Both the position numbers and the translations under genes were made by a program. Under the pieces are notes generated by a model, which did not search any database, was not told where the DNA came from, and saw only the letters and a program-made list of their open reading frames with translations. A DNA stretch of 40,587 nt from positions 1-40,587 of IMG/VR virus record IMGVR_UViG_2563366988_000007; one strand, written 5' to 3'. The stretch comes from a virus. Its lineage: Duplodnaviria; Heunggongvirae; Uroviricota; Caudoviricetes. Below, one piece after another: positions 3,396 through 35,488 of the stretch; position 1 is the first letter of the stretch, and each line of letters begins with the position of its first letter.

Positions 3396-6300
3396 AACGT
3401 TCTTCCAGAGACTGAATCCGCTCTTTTATCTTATCCATTTCTCTGCGCTGCCATGCTGCCTCGATATAGAATAAGAGATCAGGTCTGACCCCCCATCTAG
3501 ATCCTGCTGGCGTTATTTCAACGCGCTCAATGATGTCTTCTATTACCATCACTGGATTATCATCCTCATCAACAATGATGCTCCCGTCATTATCAGTCAG
3601 CGGCATTTCCCTTTGGCCAGTAATGACGTCATCATATACTGCGGGATAATCGTCATAGCAAAGAAAGGCATAGCGGCATGTTGTGCTTTCTTCTTCCATG
3701 AGTCCGTGAGAAATAAGAACATCACGAAGTTGCTGCGCGATTACACCATGATGTATCCTCGCCCCTTCTTCCCCCTTTATAGCGACAGCGTTCAGCCATT
3801 TATAAGCGATATACCTGACGTCACCCCAGGCATCCAGCAATGCTTCGTCAGGAGAGACCGGCTCTGTCTTTAATGTTCCGTCACTGGTAACCACAGGATT
3901 GGAGCCAAGATAAACTGTCGAGAACCTGTTTCCCGGACCACCAAGAGCATTTACATTATCAAGATAAGGTTTAACATCTCCGTTCTCAAAAAGATGTTCG
4001 AGTGCGTTATATACCGCGCGACGTGGAGTACTGCTTCCGGAACCATGCAACGTTATCATTGCACCATCTGCTGAAGACGTTGTTTCACCGCCGCTAACGA
4101 TTAATCTCTGAGCGGTAACATCATCAGACGGTACTTTCTTCGCAATAATGGCGTAATTACCCTCAAGTTTGACTTCCGCGCGAACTTGTCCTGATGTACC
4201 TGCATGGACAGTCAGTGACTGGACGGCAACATCATCTGTGAAATCAACGGGTACAGGAACCGTCCTCACGCCTGACGTCGACATAAAAGTAGGAAGCGTT
4301 CTGTTAGGAGTGGCTCCGTAGACAAAATCCCTTGAAACAAATTCTTCCTGTTTAATTTTCACCCTGAAACAATACAAATCAGCCGGGTGACCATCGTGAA
4401 CATAAGGATATTTTCTGTTGTTATCCCCTATGCTCCATGGGTTTAGAAAGTCTTCCCCACCGAAAATGTAGTACAGCCAGTTGTCTTTGATACAAACTGA
4501 ACCAACACCAACCGCAGAGTTAACTATTCCGCCCTGATAAATCTGATCAGTAACATTAACCCACTCTACATTATCCAGACTCCACTCATTGACGTTAACT
4601 CTGGTCATAAATGTTCTTGGATAATTTCCTGCATAACGGTTATCAGGTTCTCCTCCTTCCCACTCACCAAATGCGCGCTCACTGCCAAAAATAATCAGCT
4701 CATCGCCAACTTTGGCAAAAGGAAGGTTTGAGTGATGAACATTATTTGGGAAGCGAAGAGAATTCCATGATGTACCTAAATCAGAGCTTCTGTGCAATGA
4801 ACTACCGGGTTGAGTACTTAATGTCCCCCTGGTCGTCAGATACAGAATGCCATCATAATATTTTACACATGGCTCAGATGCATTCGCCTCATATTCTACA
4901 GGTATGCGTCTGCGAACAAAGCTACCAGGAGAACCGAAAGCATCAGAGAAATAGAGTATCCCAAGCTCGCGTGGACCAATATCACCATTATGGTAGCCAA
5001 CAGCAAAACTGTTATCGCTAATCGTCGCAAAACTGTGAATCTCAGTAACAGGAGTGCTTCCGTCAACAAAAGAAGGAATAGTTCCAAGACTGGTTTTTCT
5101 CCATGGTGACGAGTGAAATGATGTACCAAAACTCCAGTATCTACCCTCGTTATTCTGATCCACATCCTGGGTATTTTGCGTCGTAACTGTAAAAGTATTT
5201 TTATCAATAACAGTAGTCACCGTCATATTCCCGGTAACACCTGTAACACCAGAGTTTGAGAAGTTGACAAAATCACCAGCAAATAATCCGTGATCAGTAA
5301 TGCGAATATAAGCGACTTGCTGATTTGCTGCTTTCGTTATACCACCATAAACGCGAAGGCTGCGACTCATTGGGCGATCCCACAACTCTGCAACCTGCAG
5401 TTTATTTCCGCTCACGGTCCGCGTCTCAATTACAGCAAAAAGGCGATTTCTGACAACCCCCATACTCATGCAGTGATAGTTAACTGTGGGATAGTTTTCA
5501 TGTAAATCTGTAAGCCATTCCGGCGTTGTCCAGGTCTTCCCGTCATCTCCTGAGCGAACCCATGCAACATGGAGGTTATTTACACCATGGCGGTCTCCAG
5601 CCATAAAAGGCGCATAGATGACATTGTCATATACAAACGTTTTATCCTGCGTCCAGGCGTTGTACCACGGTGTATCTGTAATTTTAAATAACTCTCCCTG
5701 GATAAAATCTTCAGAAGCATAAAAAAGAGGCTGGCCCGGTATTCTCTCAAATAAAAAACGAGCATTTTTAAATCGACTGACATCCGGAAGAGTTGATACT
5801 TTAAAAGTAAGCCCTAATCCGTCAATTTTATAACCTGGAGATGAGGCTTCAAGGCACGCGCTTATTGCAGTGGAATCGTCATTTATACCATCACCAACAG
5901 CTCCAAAATCTTTGGGGCTAATAGCATCACGCATTTTATCCTGGAACGTTCGGTACACAGCCCCAGAACCATACTGAATAAACCAACCAAAACCACCAAC
6001 AACCCCGGCGATTGCAGCATCGACATAATTACGCATTGAGCGATTATTTACAGCGTCCTGCTCAAATGATGGATCTGCAAGGTTAGAAATTTTGTTTTGC
6101 TTTGCATCGTAATATTTTGCAAGCAAAGATGGTTTCATCAATGCACGTCTGAACCACCCAAAACATTGCTGGATCAGCATCGTCAGGTAGTCAAAGGCAT
6201 CTTCATGCACTTCGGGGAAAAATTTTCCCTGATTGCGAAGGTCTGTCTCCTGCACTACATCAAGCACACGATCTATCGTAATTCGCCATCCAGTAGCAAG

Positions 6301-6513
6301 CGGAGACGGAAGAACCACAGAACCGCCACTATAAGTGCCCGCCCCAGTTACCGTATAACCGGTATCCAGAACCAATTCTGTTACGTTCCCGTTCAGGTCA
6401 GACACCTGAACAACCAGGTCTGATTTTCTGAAAATTCGAAAAGTATACGGAAACGATGTCGTAACGCCGTTACCGGTGTATTCGTTGTGGTCAACTTCGG
6501 TTGAGACCGTCAT
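3394..6513 (-). CDS. Tailspike/depolymerase: epsilon15-type N-terminal anchor, beta-helix-like central domain, C-terminal intramolecular chaperone (peptidase S74-like)
   Basis: N-term MTVSTEVDHNEYTGNGVTTSFPY; FGAVGDGINDDSTAI motif; Asp-box-like SGDDGKTW and SSDLGTSW; C-terminal SDGTLK cleavage-type motif. Confidence 0.8.
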   Translation of the reverse strand: MTVSTEVDHNEYTGNGVTTSFPYTFRIFRKSDLVVQVSDLNGNVTELVLDTGYTVTGAGTYSGGSVVLPSPLATGWRITIDRVLDVVQETDLRNQGKFFPEVHEDAFDYLTMLIQQCFGWFRRALMKPSLLAKYYDAKQNKISNLADPSFEQDAVNNRSMRNYVDAAIAGVVGGFGWFIQYGSGAVYRTFQDKMRDAISPKDFGAVGDGINDDSTAISACLEASSPGYKIDGLGLTFKVSTLPDVSRFKNARFLFERIPGQPLFYASEDFIQGELFKITDTPWYNAWTQDKTFVYDNVIYAPFMAGDRHGVNNLHVAWVRSGDDGKTWTTPEWLTDLHENYPTVNYHCMSMGVVRNRLFAVIETRTVSGNKLQVAELWDRPMSRSLRVYGGITKAANQQVAYIRITDHGLFAGDFVNFSNSGVTGVTGNMTVTTVIDKNTFTVTTQNTQDVDQNNEGRYWSFGTSFHSSPWRKTSLGTIPSFVDGSTPVTEIHSFATISDNSFAVGYHNGDIGPRELGILYFSDAFGSPGSFVRRRIPVEYEANASEPCVKYYDGILYLTTRGTLSTQPGSSLHRSSDLGTSWNSLRFPNNVHHSNLPFAKVGDELIIFGSERAFGEWEGGEPDNRYAGNYPRTFMTRVNVNEWSLDNVEWVNVTDQIYQGGIVNSAVGVGSVCIKDNWLYYIFGGEDFLNPWSIGDNNRKYPYVHDGHPADLYCFRVKIKQEEFVSRDFVYGATPNRTLPTFMSTSGVRTVPVPVDFTDDVAVQSLTVHAGTSGQVRAEVKLEGNYAIIAKKVPSDDVTAQRLIVSGGETTSSADGAMITLHGSGSSTPRRAVYNALEHLFENGDVKPYLDNVNALGGPGNRFSTVYLGSNPVVTSDGTLKTEPVSPDEALLDAWGDVRYIAYKWLNAVAIKGEEGARIHHGVIAQQLRDVLISHGLMEEESTTCRYAFLCYDDYPAVYDDVITGQREMPLTDNDGSIIVDEDDNPVMVIEDIIERVEITPAGSRWGVRPDLLFYIEAAWQRREMDKIKERIQSLEER

Positions 6514-6617
6514 GTTAAATCTCCAGATAGTCGCAGCACCCGTTGCGCCGCATATCTGGTTATTCTATTACCTGTAAAACCACATATGGATAGAAAGGCT
6601 GTAAATACGAATAGATA

Positions 6618-6632
6618 TTACCTTTCAGGTAA
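6618..6632. promoter_or_regulatory. Operator-like palindrome TTACC-N5-GGTAA (ttacctttcaggtaa)
   Basis: Perfect 5+5 inverted repeat; identical 15-mer at 25228. Confidence 0.5.
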
Positions 6633-6669
6633 TTTGCAAAACGTGCTGGATAGCAAACAAATTATTTGC

Positions 6670-6966: not shown

Positions 6967-7104
6967 GGTTTGCAATTACCAAGTGGAGTGCTTATATTTA
7001 CCTTTGAGATAAATTTACATCGCACTCCTCTTGTGCCATAGTAATCGGGCACTGGCAAAATCCAGTGCCGGGATTGGCGTCCCGGATTACTAAAAGGCGC
7101 ATTC

Positions 7105-7124
7105 ACCGCGCAAGCGGTTTTTTT
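7105..7124 (+). terminator. Intrinsic terminator (accgc-gcaa-gcggt plus T7)
   Basis: caccgcgcaagcggttttttt. Confidence 0.5.
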
Positions 7125-7281
7125 ATGCGTATAGCACGGCCACATTCGTATTATGGTGGGCTGTGTGGGGGCACCGAAAGGTGCGCCGGGTCCTTTTAGC
7201 CGGTTACGCCAACCCTGCACAGTTCACCACCAACCGATTGGCGTCGGTAGTGGTGATTAACCAGACTAAAAGGTAACCACT

Positions 7282-7977
7282 ATGACAGCTACAAAAAGCA
7301 CGTCCATTTTTTCTTTCGAATCCCAAGCCGATATACGGGTAATCGTCATTAATGGTGAGCCATGGTTTATCGCTTCAGATGTTTGTCGGGCTATAGGCAT
7401 AGCAAACCATCGAGATGCTGTTCGAAAACTTGATGATGATGAGAAGGGCGTCGCTTCAACCGACACCCCTGGCGGTGAGCAAGAATCGATCATCATCTCC
7501 GAGTCAGGCCTCTACACACTGATCCTCCGCTGCCGCGACGCAGTGACACCAGGCACTATCCCCTACCGCTTTCGTAAATGGGTTACAGGTGAGGTTCTTC
7601 CTCAGATCCGCCGCACCGGAAGCTACATTAAAAACTCGCTCCCGCAGGAAGAACGCATAAAGATGGTTGCCGACCAGGTAGCCAACGCCACGGCGTCAGC
7701 AGTAATGCAGGCGATGAAGATAGAGAACAAAACCTACAGCGCCCCGCTGAAGCCCGGCTACCGCAGCCTGATTCACTCGCCGTCTGGTGTTCTCGGCCTG
7801 ACGGAAAACTCACTGCTGATGAATCTGCTGAACCAGTTACAGGACGACGGGCACGACGTATCGGGCGCGGCGGCGGAGCTGACCACCATGTTCTGCTACA
7901 TCGTCGGTGTGAGCAAATGCCTGCGTGATATCCAGACCCACGCGGAATACATCAACGACAAGGCAGGGTTCTTCTGA
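7282..7977 (+). CDS. Antirepressor, Bro-N domain protein with C-terminal domain shared with 6709-6966
   Basis: Bro-N signature IRVIVINGEPWFIASDVCRAIGI...SESGLYTLIL; SD aaaagg. Confidence 0.75.
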   Translation: MTATKSTSIFSFESQADIRVIVINGEPWFIASDVCRAIGIANHRDAVRKLDDDEKGVASTDTPGGEQESIIISESGLYTLILRCRDAVTPGTIPYRFRKWVTGEVLPQIRRTGSYIKNSLPQEERIKMVADQVANATASAVMQAMKIENKTYSAPLKPGYRSLIHSPSGVLGLTENSLLMNLLNQLQDDGHDVSGAAAELTTMFCYIVGVSKCLRDIQTHAEYINDKAGFF

Positions 7978-8021
7978 CGGGCGGTGGCACAGGGATGTGC
8001 CTTTAAATAATTCTGTACAGA

Positions 8022-8050
8022 TTGCAGACTGTGGGTGAATAGCGTACTAT
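8022..8050 (+). promoter_or_regulatory. Putative sigma70 promoter (-35 TTGCAG, 17-bp spacer, -10 TACTAT) abutting operator palindrome
   Basis: Hexamers read directly; drives 8077 ORF. Confidence 0.35.
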
Positions 8051-8064
8051 TACCTTAAAGGTAA
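8050..8064. promoter_or_regulatory. Operator-like palindrome TTACC-N5-GGTAA (ttaccttaaaggtaa)
   Basis: Perfect inverted repeat immediately upstream of SD aaggagg. Confidence 0.5.
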
Positions 8065-8076
8065 AGGAGGCGCGAT

Positions 8077-8244
8077 ATGACAGCGTTGAAAAATCGTACT
8101 CAGCACAATGAACAAGCCAAGCAATGCTGGGATGTCATTGGAAAAGTTATGCTTGGCCGCGCAAGCAAAGAGCGCGACAAGGATATGGTTTACCAGACAG
8201 GAACATCTTTCAGCGACTTCAAGGCGGCATTTCGCTCCAAATAG
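8077..8244 (+). CDS. Small protein (55 aa), unknown function; not in ORF track (below length cutoff)
   Basis: Strong SD AAGGAGG 7 nt upstream of ATG; translation MTALKNRTQHNEQAKQCWDVIGKVMLGRASKERDKDMVYQTGTSFSDFKAAFRSK. Confidence 0.4.
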   Translation: MTALKNRTQHNEQAKQCWDVIGKVMLGRASKERDKDMVYQTGTSFSDFKAAFRSK

Positions 8245-8264
8245 AAGCACATCAGGAGTTTTCC

Positions 8265-8705
8265 TTGAAGTTTAACATTAGAATATCTAATAGTTTTCTA
8301 CATGGGGAAAGCAACACCCCTTTCGCTGTAGACGGACCTTTCCTTACTGATGATGAAATAAAAATCATACAAAGTTTTTTAGAGGATGTTGCCAATGGAA
8401 GGGCGCTTGTTGGAAAAAACAAGCCCTCGTGGGTTGATGATAACCATGATAAAATTCCCGGCTCAGACAATTATGAGCAAGAGAATTATTGGCATTATCA
8501 TTGTGGGCCAACATGGTATCCAAACACATTTAAGAATTATACCATTAACTTAAATTTCAACCCTGGCGGAAGGCATTCTAATGAATGCATTCATTATGCA
8601 AAAAATGATAATGAAATTGTCATTGTTGGATTTTCAAGAGAACACATACCTTTCCTTTCATCAGATGGAAACAACAATCCGCTTTTTAATGATGAAGAAG
8701 AATAG
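8265..8705 (+). CDS. AT-rich moron protein (146 aa from TTG start; alternative ATG start at 8124), unknown function
   Basis: AGGAG SD 6 nt before in-frame TTG; no internal Met; low-GC codon usage unlike flanking phage genes; followed by terminator. Confidence 0.4.
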   Translation: MKFNIRISNSFLHGESNTPFAVDGPFLTDDEIKIIQSFLEDVANGRALVGKNKPSWVDDNHDKIPGSDNYEQENYWHYHCGPTWYPNTFKNYTINLNFNPGGRHSNECIHYAKNDNEIVIVGFSREHIPFLSSDGNNNPLFNDEEE

Positions 8706-8726
8706 CCCGCGCTGCGGGCTTTTTTG
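8704..8726 (+). terminator. Intrinsic terminator (gcccgc-gct-gcgggc plus T6)
   Basis: agcccgcgctgcgggcttttttg directly after stop codon. Confidence 0.6.
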
Positions 8727-8797
8727 TGGACGAAACAAAAGTCAGTGCTACACTCATTGACGCCACATTGAGGTGGCTTATAGATGGAAATTTCACA

Positions 8798-8959
8798 ATG
8801 AAAAAAGCATTTGCTGCACTGTTCGTTTTGTTGTCTCTGGTAGCTTCAACTCAGGCCTTTGCCGGTCGTTGTCAGCACGACAGCGACACTGCTGCTGACG
8901 GCTCCCGCTGCGGTGGGCGTTCTGCGGACTCCCGTCCGGGCGGCGGTGGCATTCGTTAA
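8798..8959 (+). CDS. Small secreted peptide (signal peptide plus about 30-aa Cys-containing mature part)
   Basis: MKKAFAALFVLLSLVASTQAFA signal; weak SD; inner ATG of ORF 8726-8959. Confidence 0.35.
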   Translation: MKKAFAALFVLLSLVASTQAFAGRCQHDSDTAADGSRCGGRSADSRPGGGGIR

Positions 8960-8981
8960 AAACAAGGCCGCGAAAGCGGCC
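8955..8981 (-). terminator. Intrinsic terminator for minus-strand virion operon (ggccgc-tttc-gcggcc then ttgttttt)
   Basis: Hairpin with T-tract on minus strand immediately after last minus-strand ORF. Confidence 0.45.
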
Positions 8982-8982
8982 T

Positions 8983-8994
8983 GTGACATGTCAC
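8983..8994. repeat. 12-bp perfect palindrome GTGACATGTCAC (copy 1 of 3)
   Basis: Exact palindrome; also at 26219 and 28670. Confidence 0.6.
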
Positions 8995-9001
8995 GCTCAC
9001 G

Positions 9002-9142
9002 TTATGACAAGCCTATGTACCCTGCTACGCCAGATAATATCATAATAACTGCAACAGCAAATTCGCCATCGTCAATGATACATTTACGGTTCATAACGCC
9101 AAGTGCAACAAGCGCAAACACAACAAGAATAAAAGCAATCAT
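9002..9142 (-). CDS. Small hydrophobic two-TM protein (46 aa), not in ORF track
   Basis: ATG 10 nt after stop of 9152-11626 gene; translation MIAFILVVFALVALGVMNRKCIIDDGEFAVAVIIMILSGVAGYIGLS. Confidence 0.3.
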   Translation of the reverse strand: MIAFILVVFALVALGVMNRKCIIDDGEFAVAVIMILSGVAGYIGLS

Positions 9143-9151
9143 TTCTCATCC

Positions 9152-11626
9152 TTATTGCGGAGTGACATCCTGTGGTCGCCACCAGTATGTCTGGTTAAAC
9201 TCTTTCTTCGAACGTTGCTCCATTTTACGCAAATAACCTGGTGAAAAATACTCCTGCATCTGGTTAAAGATCATGTGATCGAGAGCCGCCTTCAAGTACC
9301 AGAGATTCGCACCTGGCATCAAACCTTTCCCCAGCTTCACCAGATCACCACCAGTCTGCTCACTCTTCCCTTCCACAGCATTTAACGGTATGCCCTGAGC
9401 AATCTTCACTACGTCATCAACCAGACCAGCTACCGGGCCAAGCATCGACGCCAGCGCGCCGCTTCCGTACCTAGTGTGATCTGACAATAAAAAGTCACCG
9501 TAAAGGCCAAGGCCACCACCTTTCAGTAGAGCACCAAGCCAGAATTTTGCGGCACCTTCTCCTGTCATCTCTCGAGGATTACGACCAGACGCAAGGTCGT
9601 TAAGTTGCTGCGACAAAGCGCCAAGAATGGTCGTACTGGCAATAAACGTCGCAATATATGCCGCACGCCCACCAGCAGACGGCATACCCATAGCGCGTGA
9701 CCAGTGACGCATAACAACCGAGATAGGGAACGATTTAAACAGGAAAACACTTCTCGTTAATTCACCTTTCCATGTTCCACGCTGAATACCAGAACCGGTT
9801 ATCAGTTGCTCACGTGCTCCCGGTGTAATAACAGCCATATCAACTTCTTCAGTTACGGCACCGAGCAGTTTACGCATTGCCTCAAATTTCACGCGTTCAG
9901 GCTCACCAAGATGTTTAACTGCTGAATCAGGGATACGCATAATGCTTTCCGGTGTCAGCATCGTATTATTACCGTTCCCCCAGTCCTCCTGTTTCGCCAG
10001 CTTCCATACGCTCCAGTCTGTGTCAGTAATCCCTTTGCTTTTCAGGATACGAAAATCAGAGTCATCGAGGCTACGAAGGTCTGGTGTCCGTGACACTACT
10101 TCTCCCAGGCTTCCCATCATGGTTACGCCATAGGCGCGCTTGTGCGCATCTGACCATGCTGTAAGCCCACTGGCACGCATTACCGCCGTTGCCGCCCAAC
10201 GAGACACTGACGGCCCCATATTATCCATCGCCCAGCGGTTAACGCTGCCAAGTAGAGATTCCATCGCCAGACCAGCGCGGCGCGCCCGCGCAAGTTCTGT
10301 ACGGTTCGTTGGGTCCATAGCTTCAAGCTGGTTGCGGAATAACTGGTTCATTGGAAGGTTGGTAACCTTCGCAGACAGATACATGGTTCCAAGATCAGAG
10401 AACGATGACAGCAACGCGGATCCGAGTCTGCTGGCAACCAGCCAGTTGCGGATATTGTCAGACCATCGCGCGATGTGCGGATTCGCTACAGGCTGTGTCT
10501 TTCCGGAAATAAAGTTGTACAGATTCTCTGTGTTGTTCGCCAGCCGCTCGACTTTACCGGTTTTACTCGGGTTAGCTGTTGCCGTTTCTGCCTTCACCTG
10601 ATCAAGAAGAGAGCGGAAAACATGATCGGGGTTTGGGCCATATGTTTCCACCAGTGCAATATCTTTACTGATACCTTCCAGGTGACCGACCATGATTTCC
10701 CATAGAGAGCGATCGCCATAAAGTTGCTGATATTGCAGATAGGAATCTGCATCTTTGAAATGTATCTGTCGTGATGCATTACCACGGTTAGCACGTGCGC
10801 CGGAAATTCGCATTCCGGTATCAGTAAGCTTATTCAGCCCACCAGTAGCGATCGTGTTATAAGCCTCTCCAAGAAATGAAGACAACTCGGCATCGTTCAT
10901 CAGTTGTCCATCGGCTCGGATATAATATTTGCGATCCAGCTTACCTATAACATCGCTAACCCACTTATCCTTTGATACTGCCCCAACCTTTTCCATAGAA
11001 TGATGTTGAGGGATCCCCCAGTTTTCGAGATAGCCAATGTCCCCACCAGCATCATTAAACCGGCGGCGCAGCAGCTCTGTAACTTCTCTCCACGCCTTAG
11101 CACCGTTTCTTGCTTTAGCATTGCCAGTATTTTGCCCCCGCATTTCATATACCAGGTCACGTACGCCCGCTTCATCTTCAAACAGACCAAAAAAGCGAGG
11201 ATCAACTGCTTCGAATGCCTCCTGCAATTGACTCAATGCATAATCACGGGTGGCTTTTGTTCTGGATTCAACAGAGAGGAAATTAGATTTACCGTCTGCA
11301 TTAAAAGCTATAGTACGGTTAAGAGCGCCAAGTTTCCCATCAGCCCCTTGATAGCTATTGATAAATTTATCCAATCTCTGACGCGCGGCTATAGTGAGAG
11401 CCACACGACGTTTCTTTAATGCCGCTTCTCGCTGTAATTCTTCAGATGCCAATTGTGCTGCTCGATATAGCCGCTCTGATTCGGAAAGTTGTCTCCACGA
11501 CATCGGGTCATCACGAGCAATGGAGCGCATATTTCGATAAATGCGGTCTTCAATGTTCTGTATTTCTCGCGCCGTTAACGTGCGCTGCGCCGCCTGCTGG
11601 ACCGCTTGTATACATTCCTGTCTCAT
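9152..11626 (-). CDS. Large internal virion/ejection protein
   Basis: 824-aa ORF in virion operon, T7 gp15/16-like position. Confidence 0.55.
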   Translation of the reverse strand: MRQECIQAVQQAAQRTLTAREIQNIEDRIYRNMRSIARDDPMSWRQLSESERLYRAAQLASEELQREAALKKRRVALTIAARQRLDKFINSYQGADGKLGALNRTIAFNADGKSNFLSVESRTKATRDYALSQLQEAFEAVDPRFFGLFEDEAGVRDLVYEMRGQNTGNAKARNGAKAWREVTELLRRRFNDAGGDIGYLENWGIPQHHSMEKVGAVSKDKWVSDVIGKLDRKYYIRADGQLMNDAELSSFLGEAYNTIATGGLNKLTDTGMRISGARANRGNASRQIHFKDADSYLQYQQLYGDRSLWEIMVGHLEGISKDIALVETYGPNPDHVFRSLLDQVKAETATANPSKTGKVERLANNTENLYNFISGKTQPVANPHIARWSDNIRNWLVASRLGSALLSSFSDLGTMYLSAKVTNLPMNQLFRNQLEAMDPTNRTELARARRAGLAMESLLGSVNRWAMDNMGPSVSRWAATAVMRASGLTAWSDAHKRAYGVTMMGSLGEVVSRTPDLRSLDDSDFRILKSKGITDTDWSVWKLAKQEDWGNGNNTMLTPESIMRIPDSAVKHLGEPERVKFEAMRKLLGAVTEEVDMAVITPGAREQLITGSGIQRGTWKGELTRSVFLFKSFPISVVMRHWSRAMGMPSAGGRAAYIATFIASTTILGALSQQLNDLASGRNPREMTGEGAAKFWLGALLKGGGLGLYGDFLLSDHTRYGSGALASMLGPVAGLVDDVVKIAQGIPLNAVEGKSEQTGGDLVKLGKGLMPGANLWYLKAALDHMIFNQMQEYFSPGYLRKMEQRSKKEFNQTYWWRPQDVTPQ

Positions 11627-34903: not shown

Positions 34904-35488
34904 ATGAAAAGTATCCAGGACGTCCGCAGGCAAAATCTCAACGACTTGATCGACCGTGAATTCAATGGTGTTCAGACGCGGATGGCAGAAAAACTTGGAA
35001 CTCAGGCAAATCTGGTAAACCGCTGGGCTCTTGGCAAGAAGGTTATCGGCGACCAGGTTGCGCGAAAAATTGAAGCTGCCGCCAATAAACCCCGTAACTG
35101 GCTTGATATCGATCGCTCGCTTTCTCAGGAAGGTTTTCAGCCTGTCGGCCCAAGCGACATTGGTCAGCTGGCGGCTCACAACCTGGAACGCTGGATGAGC
35201 GAAAGCCGCGACCTTTCAACACAGGGAAAACTTCACCGCGCATCCGGCGTCGCCCAGGTGACAATCAGCCGCCTGTTAAACAATGAGGTCAGCGTTTCCA
35301 TTTCCACCCTGGAGAATGTTGCATCCGCATTCGGGCGTCACGGCTATGAATTACTGATTCACCCGCACGACCCTGCGACTATCAACTATGACCGCTCGCG
35401 CTACGCATTGTTACCCGAAACAGAGAAGGCAAAGATCGAAAGTTACATTGAATTTGTCATCAGCCAGAACGAAAAAAACAAACAATAA
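34904..35488 (+). CDS. Immunity repressor, tandem HTH (XRE-type) domains, no LexA-like S24 autocleavage domain
   Basis: Two HTH-like segments (QTRMAEKLGTQANLVNRW and ASGVAQVTISRLLNNE); no GDSM/Ser-Lys peptidase motif. Confidence 0.7.
   Translation: MKSIQDVRRQNLNDLIDREFNGVQTRMAEKLGTQANLVNRWALGKKVIGDQVARKIEAAANKPRNWLDIDRSLSQEGFQPVGPSDIGQLAAHNLERWMSESRDLSTQGKLHRASGVAQVTISRLLNNEVSVSISTLENVASAFGRHGYELLIHPHDPATINYDRSRYALLPETEKAKIESYIEFVISQNEKNKQ

Follow-up and report, generated by a model that had tools for sequence, protein, structure and literature searches.

A putative RelE/YafO-type toxin and its small partner in an exchangeable two-gene slot behind a phage-wide palindrome of an epsilon15/phiV10-type phage

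We describe a two-gene cassette in the IMG/VR virus record IMGVR_UViG_2563366988_000007 (Caudoviricetes; positions 1 to 40,587, the whole of which, 40,587 nucleotides (nt), is called the window below), a temperate podophage or prophage of the epsilon15/phiV10 type (genus Uetakevirus). The cassette consists of two plus-strand open reading frames (ORFs), of 55 and 146 amino acids (aa), that lie between a promoter with an operator-like palindrome and a terminator. The σ70-like promoter that an earlier note on this DNA had assigned to the cassette is present at 8022–8050 on the plus strand (−35 TTGCAG, 8022–8027; 17-nt spacer; −10 TACTAT, 8045–8050), though it agrees with the consensus at 7 of 12 positions, a weak match, and was absent from the list of a consensus scan. 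The same layout is seen in relatives (TTGCTA-17-TATACT, TTGCGA-17-TATACT and TTGGCG-18-TAATAT), and homologous cassettes elsewhere carry a promoter-like hexamer pair at an equal distance from their first gene. A perfect, strandless palindrome, TTACCTTaAAGGTAA (8050–8064), abuts the −10 hexamer and sits between it and the Shine-Dalgarno (SD) sequence of the first gene. This gene encodes the 55-aa protein, a putative antitoxin (8077–8244, plus strand), and has the strong SD ascribed to it (AAGGAGG, 8064–8070, 6 nt ahead of the ATG). The second gene encodes the 146-aa protein, a putative toxin (8265–8705, plus strand; stop codon 8703–8705), and opens with a TTG at 8265 behind the SD AGGAG (8254–8258; 6-nt spacer). 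The terminator expected after it was also found: an intrinsic terminator on the plus strand (8704–8726, AGCCCGC-GCT-GCGGGCT followed by TTTTTTG) overlaps the stop codon of the 146-aa gene, with a 7-bp GC stem (8704–8720) and a T-run (−14.6 kcal/mol, z = −2.6). Rfam showed no RNA family within the cassette, a Trp_leader match (E = 0.36) being the terminator only. The GC profile, a check suggested in the note, falls to 0.37–0.39 within the 146-aa gene compared to 0.50–0.58 in the flanks. Escherichia phage phiv142-3 (MN187550) is 99.6% identical to the window over 7900–8995, and a chicken E. coli chromosome matches the cassette region at 100%. Among 5,426 complete E. coli genomes, 77 contain the cassette, with each of its two genes annotated 'hypothetical protein'.

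Three reading frames have been proposed for the second gene. The earlier note allowed either a start at TTG 8265 or a long form from 8124, and some GenBank/NCBI entries annotate the latter as a 193-aa protein. Homologues start at the position aligned with 8265, with TTG (in many Enterobacterales), GTG or ATG, and at several loci the frame is closed just ahead of the toxin start, where the stop codon of the upstream gene adjoins it. Because the starts align at this position and the frame is closed upstream in many homologues, the TTG start was kept and the 193-aa form was rejected. The GenBank entry MN187550 annotates a third product, the 52-aa 'orf10' (QGF19616.1; window 8395–8553, plus strand; 6498–6656 of MN187550), which runs in the +1 frame inside the 146-aa gene. 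Its frame is stopped in homologues of 75% identity, while the 146-aa frame is conserved to ∼25% identity and folds with high predicted confidence (see below), and orf10 was therefore rejected as the product. Despite the existing annotations, we give hardly any credence to the idea that the 52-aa or the 193-aa form is the true product.

The 146-aa protein is PHROG 5954, a family of unknown function, and all its names and annotations in the sources read 'hypothetical protein' or 'uncharacterized protein'. A word-indexed search with the protein recovered 34 clusters in Enterobacterales and Pasteurellaceae, and an exhaustive profile search with the family recovered 122 clusters at 50% identity. 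The RelE, ParE, YafQ, HigB, YoeB and BrnT models of Pfam and NCBIfam gave no relevant match among 26 family members at E values up to 10, and a Pfam scan of 20 sampled distant members returned no domain. Structure prediction, which the note had recommended, gave a confident model: AlphaFold2, run on the family alignment, reached a predicted local distance difference test (pLDDT) of 92.5 and a predicted template modelling score (pTM) of 0.87, and the model has the RelE/ParE core of a strand and two helices followed by a three-stranded antiparallel sheet. The best matches of the protein are the RNase members RelE, YafQ and YoeB, and Foldseek ranked the same families first, at E values of at least 0.3 that are not significant; Foldseek searches of PDB and BFVD with the model gave no significant match. 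Compared to RelE, YafQ, YoeB and HigB, which are ∼85–95 aa long, the 146-aa protein has two insertions (∼residues 44–74 and 80–107) and an extended tail in place of the C-terminal helix, and it has no detectable sequence similarity to them.

Conserved residues cluster in the motifs GKNKPSW, WHYHCG, IHY and S..H.PF. In a 56-sequence alignment that extends down to ∼25% identity, H77, H79 and H127 are invariant and F11, G50, N52, K53, S55, Y78, G81, S105, H110, Y111 and F130 are nearly so. In the model, H77 and H79 alternate on strand 2 (75–79), H110 and Y111 lie on strand 3 (108–113), and H127 and F130 follow strand 4 (117–124). The active site of RelE comprises K52, K54, R61, R81 and Y87, and that of YafQ comprises H50, H63, D67, H87 and F91. 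From the topology of the model we infer that the conserved histidine, lysine, tyrosine and phenylalanine residues occupy the places of these active sites. A protein of this fold might instead be a ParE-like toxin that does not cleave RNA, for example a gyrase poison, or might act by binding some other protein. We consider this very unlikely: the best matches named above are all RNases, three invariant histidines and a lysine lie on the face of the sheet as in YafQ and HigB, to our knowledge ParE has no such histidine/lysine set, and the only signal at the sequence level leads to YafO, an mRNA interferase.

That signal came from profile comparison. By hhalign, the 146-aa family showed no significant similarity to the single sequences of TL-2011b gp44, YafQ and YafO. 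With an alignment of eight YafO-family toxins it gave a score of 22.7 (P = 0.0066, HH probability 5.8%) over 94 in-register columns, compared to a maximum of 16.1 in 40 column-shuffled controls and 15.3 with the reversed alignment. The aligned blocks are the helix L..FI...G, G[KR][ND], an HxH strand (H77, H79) and the strand TS..(V/L)(I/V).Y. The signal is weak but coherent, and suggests a distant kinship between the 146-aa family and YafO, a ribosome-dependent mRNA interferase. The Pfam model YafO_toxin (PF13957) had no match in any of the 26 family members, even at E = 10, and a YafO search of viral contigs for related loci found none. As aligned in this comparison, YafO (of the E. coli pair YafN-YafO) shares with the 146-aa family the order of the motif blocks, which ends with a hydrophobic strand and a histidine, and both families travel as plasmid or prophage cargo with a gene directly upstream. 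In contrast, the GKNKPSW block and the longer insertions belong to the 146-aa family. The upstream proteins also differ, since YafN is a Phd/YefM-type antitoxin and the 55-aa partner is unrelated to it. On IncFIB plasmids of Klebsiella and Enterobacter (loci L185, L186, L188 and L189), YafO-family toxins follow overlapping genes for 'hypothetical proteins' of ∼175–205 aa, with no YafN-type antitoxin upstream, an arrangement that recalls the long-partner loci of the 146-aa family described below.

We then considered the gene upstream of the toxin. At 43 of 46 loci, an ORF on the same strand that carries the partner motif ends 0–31 nt before the toxin start or overlaps it (gap −7 to +31 nt), so that an adjacent, co-directional gene pair is kept across unrelated contexts. 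The upstream ORFs of L026 and L029 lack the motif. L030 was discarded as a false tblastn match; by eye it resembles ribosomal protein L13. The 55-aa protein itself is PHROG 8607, of unknown function. In Enterobacterales, the partners are 55–65 aa long and align well, with W18 and R28 invariant and the consensus A..CWD.IGKVILGR ... Y..GMS..DI.AA. Across the partners, the C-terminal motif is conserved and the N-termini vary. The filamentous Vibrio phage has a 50-aa partner (EYKKACDDVLLSRG...). In lambdoid prophages of Klebsiella (L004, L005, L006 and L008; 3446–4486) there are three genes, for an extra 95-aa protein, a 102-aa partner and the toxin, and the ∼100-aa partner ends in the motif of the short ones. 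Partners of 160–210 aa with a similar C-terminus are found in Pasteurellaceae and Neisseriaceae (L013–L028, where their ORFs end at ∼2995). A Pfam scan of the long partners and of the extra 95-aa Klebsiella gene found no domains. The AlphaFold2 model of the 55-aa protein (pLDDT 73.5, pTM 0.36) has a helix at residues 2–31, a loop and a short helix at 45–53. As this model has no globular DNA-binding fold, the protein was rejected as an antitoxin of the ribbon-helix-helix (RHH) type; such a shape would suit an antitoxin whose folding takes place on the toxin.

Five kinds of genomic context harbour the pair. Uetakevirus-like prophages (of Escherichia, Enterobacter, Klebsiella and Pectobacterium) have it at the same slot, and the lambdoid Klebsiella prophages have it in their nin region. 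An inovirus and a decayed K. aerogenes prophage remnant carry it too, and it stands by itself between the gene of an IclR-type regulator and a dgo-type sugar-acid operon. It also lies beside a polyvalent-protein gene in a Pasteurellaceae element. Judged from these gene neighbourhoods, such an autonomous and persistent two-gene unit is the genomic signature of toxin–antitoxin (TA) modules.

The comparison with phage TL-2011b defines what is mobile. TL-2011b and the window share an identical stretch that starts at the end of the ant gene, covers the hairpin behind it, the promoter and the operator, and breaks off at the SD, directly after GGTAAA. Identity resumes exactly at the stop codon and terminator. 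Between these borders TL-2011b carries a 59-aa ORF and the YafO-family toxin gp44 (Pfam 26.3 bits, cut-off 25). Since the identity lies outside the ORFs, the alignment indicates that promoter, operator and terminator are phage backbone and that only the two ORFs are exchangeable cargo. The view that the genes are horizontally acquired cargo is thus borne out, but the promoter-gene-terminator moron that the earlier note saw here is not an autonomous one: with its control elements in the backbone, the cassette is wired into the regulation of the phage. Two different toxin pairs between an identical promoter-operator and terminator make a neat case of cassette exchange. The slot is lacking in phiV10. 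Between the window and TL-2011b (∼3425–3445), the stems of the terminator hairpin are identical and the 3-nt loop is inverted (GCT versus AGC), perhaps a relic of the recombination event behind the cargo exchange.

The palindrome in front of the cassette had been read as the cassette's own operator. Its perfect symmetry and its position stand, but it proved to be a copy of a motif used throughout the phage. TTACC-N5-GGTAA occurs 13 times in the window with at most one mismatch, compared to 0.54 expected copies (at 6618, 6998, 8050, 25228, 28373, 28391, 32448, 32510, 34449, 34786, 34834, 35546 and 35608), and the copies front most transcription units, whether early, late, lysogenic or accessory. 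In phiv142-3, 14 of 15 copies are intergenic and stand ahead of transcription units: the divergent region of the tail fibre gene and orf7, the c4-ant operon, the cassette, the virion operon, terS, the DUF1064 operon, the replication operon, the divergent region of repressor and cro, the early-left operon and the integrase gene. phiV10 has copies at corresponding places. The motif directly follows or overlaps −10-like hexamers, for example TTGACA-16-TAATCA|TTACC before the early-left operon and TTGCAA-17-TATATT|ACC before c4-ant. The divergent repressor and cro-like genes have two copies between them, and two more are found downstream of the repressor gene, whose product (34904–35488) is an XRE-type protein with two helix-turn-helix (HTH) domains. 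From this arrangement, TTACC-N5-GGTAA is most likely the operator of the prophage repressor, used genome-wide. An autoregulatory operator specific to the TA pair was rejected, the palindrome being the phage-wide motif within the backbone common to TL-2011b. Literature searches on the operators of phiV10- or epsilon15-type phages, or on this toxin family, gave nothing usable.

The region upstream of the cassette fits the same regulatory picture. The upstream neighbour is a Bro-N antirepressor gene (7282–7977, plus strand; Pfam Bro-N, 2.3e-21; stop codon 7975–7977). Ahead of it, Rfam placed on the plus strand the C4 antisense RNA (7149–7234, 77.7 bits; gathering score 45), the Hfq-binding RNA isrK (7049–7124, 77.9 bits; gathering score 50) and the a1/b1 targets of C4 (7036–7088, 45.1 bits, just below the gathering score of 46.7). 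These RNAs (7036–7234) together with ant form a c4-ant secondary immunity operon like immI of P1 and P7 (c4 RNA-icd-ant), which likewise combines the C4 RNA, its a1/b1 targets and an antirepressor gene, here upstream of the cassette. The c4-ant operon of the window is preceded by a promoter overlapped by TTACC-N5-GGTAA, and a single palindromic motif thereby stands before many operons, which is also true of the C1 operators in P1. Unlike in P1, the operator sequence is a different one, the motif is a putative operator and the repressor is of the two-HTH XRE type; furthermore, immI of P1 has no TA pair at its end. A weak hairpin on the plus strand (GGCACA-GGGA-TGTGCC, 7986–8001; −9.9 kcal/mol, z = −1.35), which has no clean T-run and follows the antirepressor stop, is kept in TL-2011b and in locus L050 and is possibly a leaky terminator of the c4-ant operon.

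Taking these data together, we consider it probable that the cassette is a type II-like TA pair, formed by an enlarged putative mRNA endonuclease of the RelE/YafO type and a small partner that does not bind DNA, in a slot under the phage-wide operator. The TA role that had been among the candidates in the earlier note gains support from the RelE/ParE fold, the histidines at the presumed RelE/YafQ active-site positions, the upstream partner and the independent mobility. This reading builds on what was observed of the anatomy of the cassette, the fold, the conserved residues, the conserved pairing of the genes, the borders of the swap and the copies of the motif; that the toxin is an active RNase, that it is toxic and is neutralised by the partner, and which protein binds the motif are predictions drawn from these observations. 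The 146-aa protein would be a divergent RelE core with two insertions and a C-terminal tail, an endoribonuclease that would cut mRNA, probably on the ribosome, with a catalytic face made up of H77/H79 (strand 2), H110/Y111 (strand 3) and H127/F130 (after strand 4). The 55-aa partner would neutralise it by binding through the conserved helix-loop-helix segment (A..CW..IGKV.LGR ... Y..G.S..D...A). As the partner has a strong SD and an ATG and the toxin starts with TTG, an excess of antitoxin is expected. Because the partner lacks a DNA-binding domain, transcription would be set by the phage and not autoregulated, and expression of the pair would stay low as long as the lysogen is quiet and increase along with that of the early genes once repression is lifted. 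Fold and gene architecture are classical; what is new is the sequence family, the partner and the way in which control seems to have passed to the phage.

The partner sets the pair apart from RelE-type systems, whose antitoxins have an RHH, Phd or HTH domain that is missing here. Type II antitoxins with a DNA-binding domain autoregulate their operon; for the 55-aa partner, neither the AlphaFold2 model nor Pfam shows such a domain. A parallel in this respect is PaaR2-PaaA2-ParE2 of E. coli O157 prophages, a system with a small disordered antitoxin and a separate regulator. It is also prophage-borne and its antitoxin is a small helical protein with no DNA-binding domain, so that in both systems transcriptional control must come from another protein. 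In PaaR2-PaaA2-ParE2, however, the regulator is the third gene of the module and the toxin is ParE, whereas the cassette has no third gene and its operator is the genome-wide motif of the phage.

Several observations weigh against a type II-like pair under phage control. No toxin-family model in Pfam, NCBIfam or PADLOC matches the 146-aa protein, and searches of PDB with two family profiles gave chance matches only. The proposed equivalence of the active sites is read in the model from strand order alone. The partners in Pasteurellaceae and Neisseriaceae have at their N-terminus a hydrophobic segment that resembles a signal peptide or transmembrane segment, an unusual feature in an antitoxin, and membrane-tethered control of the toxin is a possibility in these lineages. 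A hidden Markov model of the short partners ranked the long ones at the top of 1,264 ORFs, but with E values of only 0.02–0.2, and for this reason the homology of short and long partners, as judged by sequence, is tentative. As for control by the phage, the lambdoid Klebsiella prophages have one TTACC-N5-GGTAA before the cassette and no other in the 10 kb upstream. Outside the Uetakeviruses, a single palindrome likewise stands ahead of the first cassette gene, equally far from it, but can differ in sequence: the K. aerogenes remnant and related contigs have ATCACC-N3-GGTGAT, and another lineage has ATCGC-N4-GCGAT. A binding protein linked to the cassette is therefore possible. Finally, the published phenotypes of an orf10 deletion (serum resistance and kps expression) are not predicted by a silent toxin.

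These phenotypes come from work on the prophage phiv142-3 of avian pathogenic E. coli, where 'orf10' was studied as a gene for serum resistance and virulence (Li et al. 2020; PMC7724020). The earlier note had seen in the cassette the best candidate in the window for an undescribed function; the 146-aa gene is not entirely unstudied, as part of it was deleted in that work. Both 60-nt recombination arms of the Δorf10 mutant match the window at 60 of 60 positions (8335–8394 and 8554–8613), and from these exact positions it follows that Δorf10 removes codons 44–97 of a protein with the RelE fold, including GKNKPSW and WHYHCG. 'orf10' is thus a wrong-frame call within a RelE/YafO-like putative toxin gene, and, since the mutant lacks the toxin core, the reported virulence phenotype needs to be re-interpreted. 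RNA from the region was 2^4.12-fold higher in chicken serum than in LB medium, the second-highest rise after that of orf41 (2^4.56) and above that of orf40 (2^3.68) (PMC7724020). orf40 and orf41 are the first genes of the replication operon, downstream of another copy of the motif. The mutant grew normally in LB but grew less well in serum, where its survival was lowered to about 60%, its kps transcripts were ∼2-fold lower, and its loads in blood and heart were reduced; these effects were complemented from a plasmid, with the complementing fragment unspecified in the paper (PMC7724020). The data show transcription of the region, co-induction with early genes and tolerance to loss of the toxin core, and both the induction and the tolerance fit a neutralised toxin under phage control, which does not, however, account for the virulence phenotypes.

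Two further explanations draw on these data. On the first, which follows the proposal of Li et al. 2020 for 'orf10', the RelE-fold protein is not toxic but regulates, and thereby increases, K1 capsule expression and serum resistance, with the fold repurposed, for example, for selective mRNA processing or RNA binding. The complemented losses of serum survival, kps transcripts and blood and heart loads speak for it, as does the fact that the deletion takes out two conserved motifs of the 146-aa protein. The study was, however, aimed at a wrong-frame ORF with an undefined complementing fragment, the effects are modest and could be indirect (through a truncated toxin, altered partner levels or altered prophage induction), and an enzyme kept neutralised is what the three invariant histidines and the obligatory partner gene suggest; we hold such a regulator to be distinctly unlikely. 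On the second explanation, the pair is a tool of the lytic cycle rather than a module for addiction or defence: the RNase remodels or shuts off host translation on derepression, and the 55-aa protein serves as a timer or inhibitor. This agrees with the early-promoter design of the operator region, the rise of the RNA together with early replication genes in serum and the location of the slot at the end of the immI-like operon. The pair nevertheless persists in a prophage remnant and in a chromosomal metabolic locus, where there is no lytic cycle, and in a non-lytic filamentous phage, and phiV10 does without the slot, so it is dispensable. We regard a lytic role as unlikely.

The preferred reading, a TA pair in a phage-controlled slot, can be extended to function. 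The E. coli Uetakeviruses might keep a fixed, repressor-controlled expression slot at the end of the c4-ant operon, made up of backbone promoter, phage operator and terminator, into which alternative RelE/YafO-type pairs are plugged. Controlled through the repressor's operator instead of its own antitoxin, such a pair would act as an alarm for the loss of repressor. The trigger would be inactivation of the repressor, whether through induction, an antirepressor that enters the cell or a heteroimmune phage. We put this forward as a speculation with a small chance of being correct. If true, it would couple immunity status to translation shutoff, a regulatory logic undescribed for type II TA systems, and might account for the serum-induced virulence phenotype of 'orf10' as well. 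The analysis provides a predicted fold and a testable mechanism for a family of ∼120 clusters (at 50% identity) that has no Pfam match in the members sampled, and describes a type II-like pair that seems to leave its transcription to the global operator system of a phage instead of autoregulating it. The motif and the C4/IsrK-type immI region also outline the regulatory wiring of epsilon15/phiV10-like phages. Many copies of the motif contain ACCT-N3-AGGT (half-site TTACCT), which we take to be the core of the palindrome of the E. coli antitoxin MqsA (half-site TAACCT), and on this resemblance cross-talk of the motif with XRE-type regulators of the host is conceivable.

Downstream of the terminator lies the small secreted peptide that the earlier note counted in the cassette. 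A 53-aa ORF with a signal peptide is present (8798–8959, plus strand; PHROG 14503, 'membrane associated protein'), but it is a separate gene outside the swapped segment. It has a promoter-like sequence of its own (TTGACG-17-ATAGAT), its mature part contains Gly, Arg and Cys, and it is found in phiv142-3 (Orf11) and, beside the different YafO cargo, in TL-2011b, while it is absent from phiV10. For the 55-aa and 53-aa proteins, Pfam and NCBIfam held nothing relevant and PHROGs only families of unknown function, and, as to the abortive-infection or other defence role that the earlier note had also considered, in PADLOC-DB v2 there was no defence-protein match for the 55-, 146- or 53-aa protein at E values up to 1. 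On this side of the cassette lies the end of the minus-strand virion operon, with the genes for a 46-aa membrane protein (9002–9142) and an 824-aa virion protein (9152–11626).

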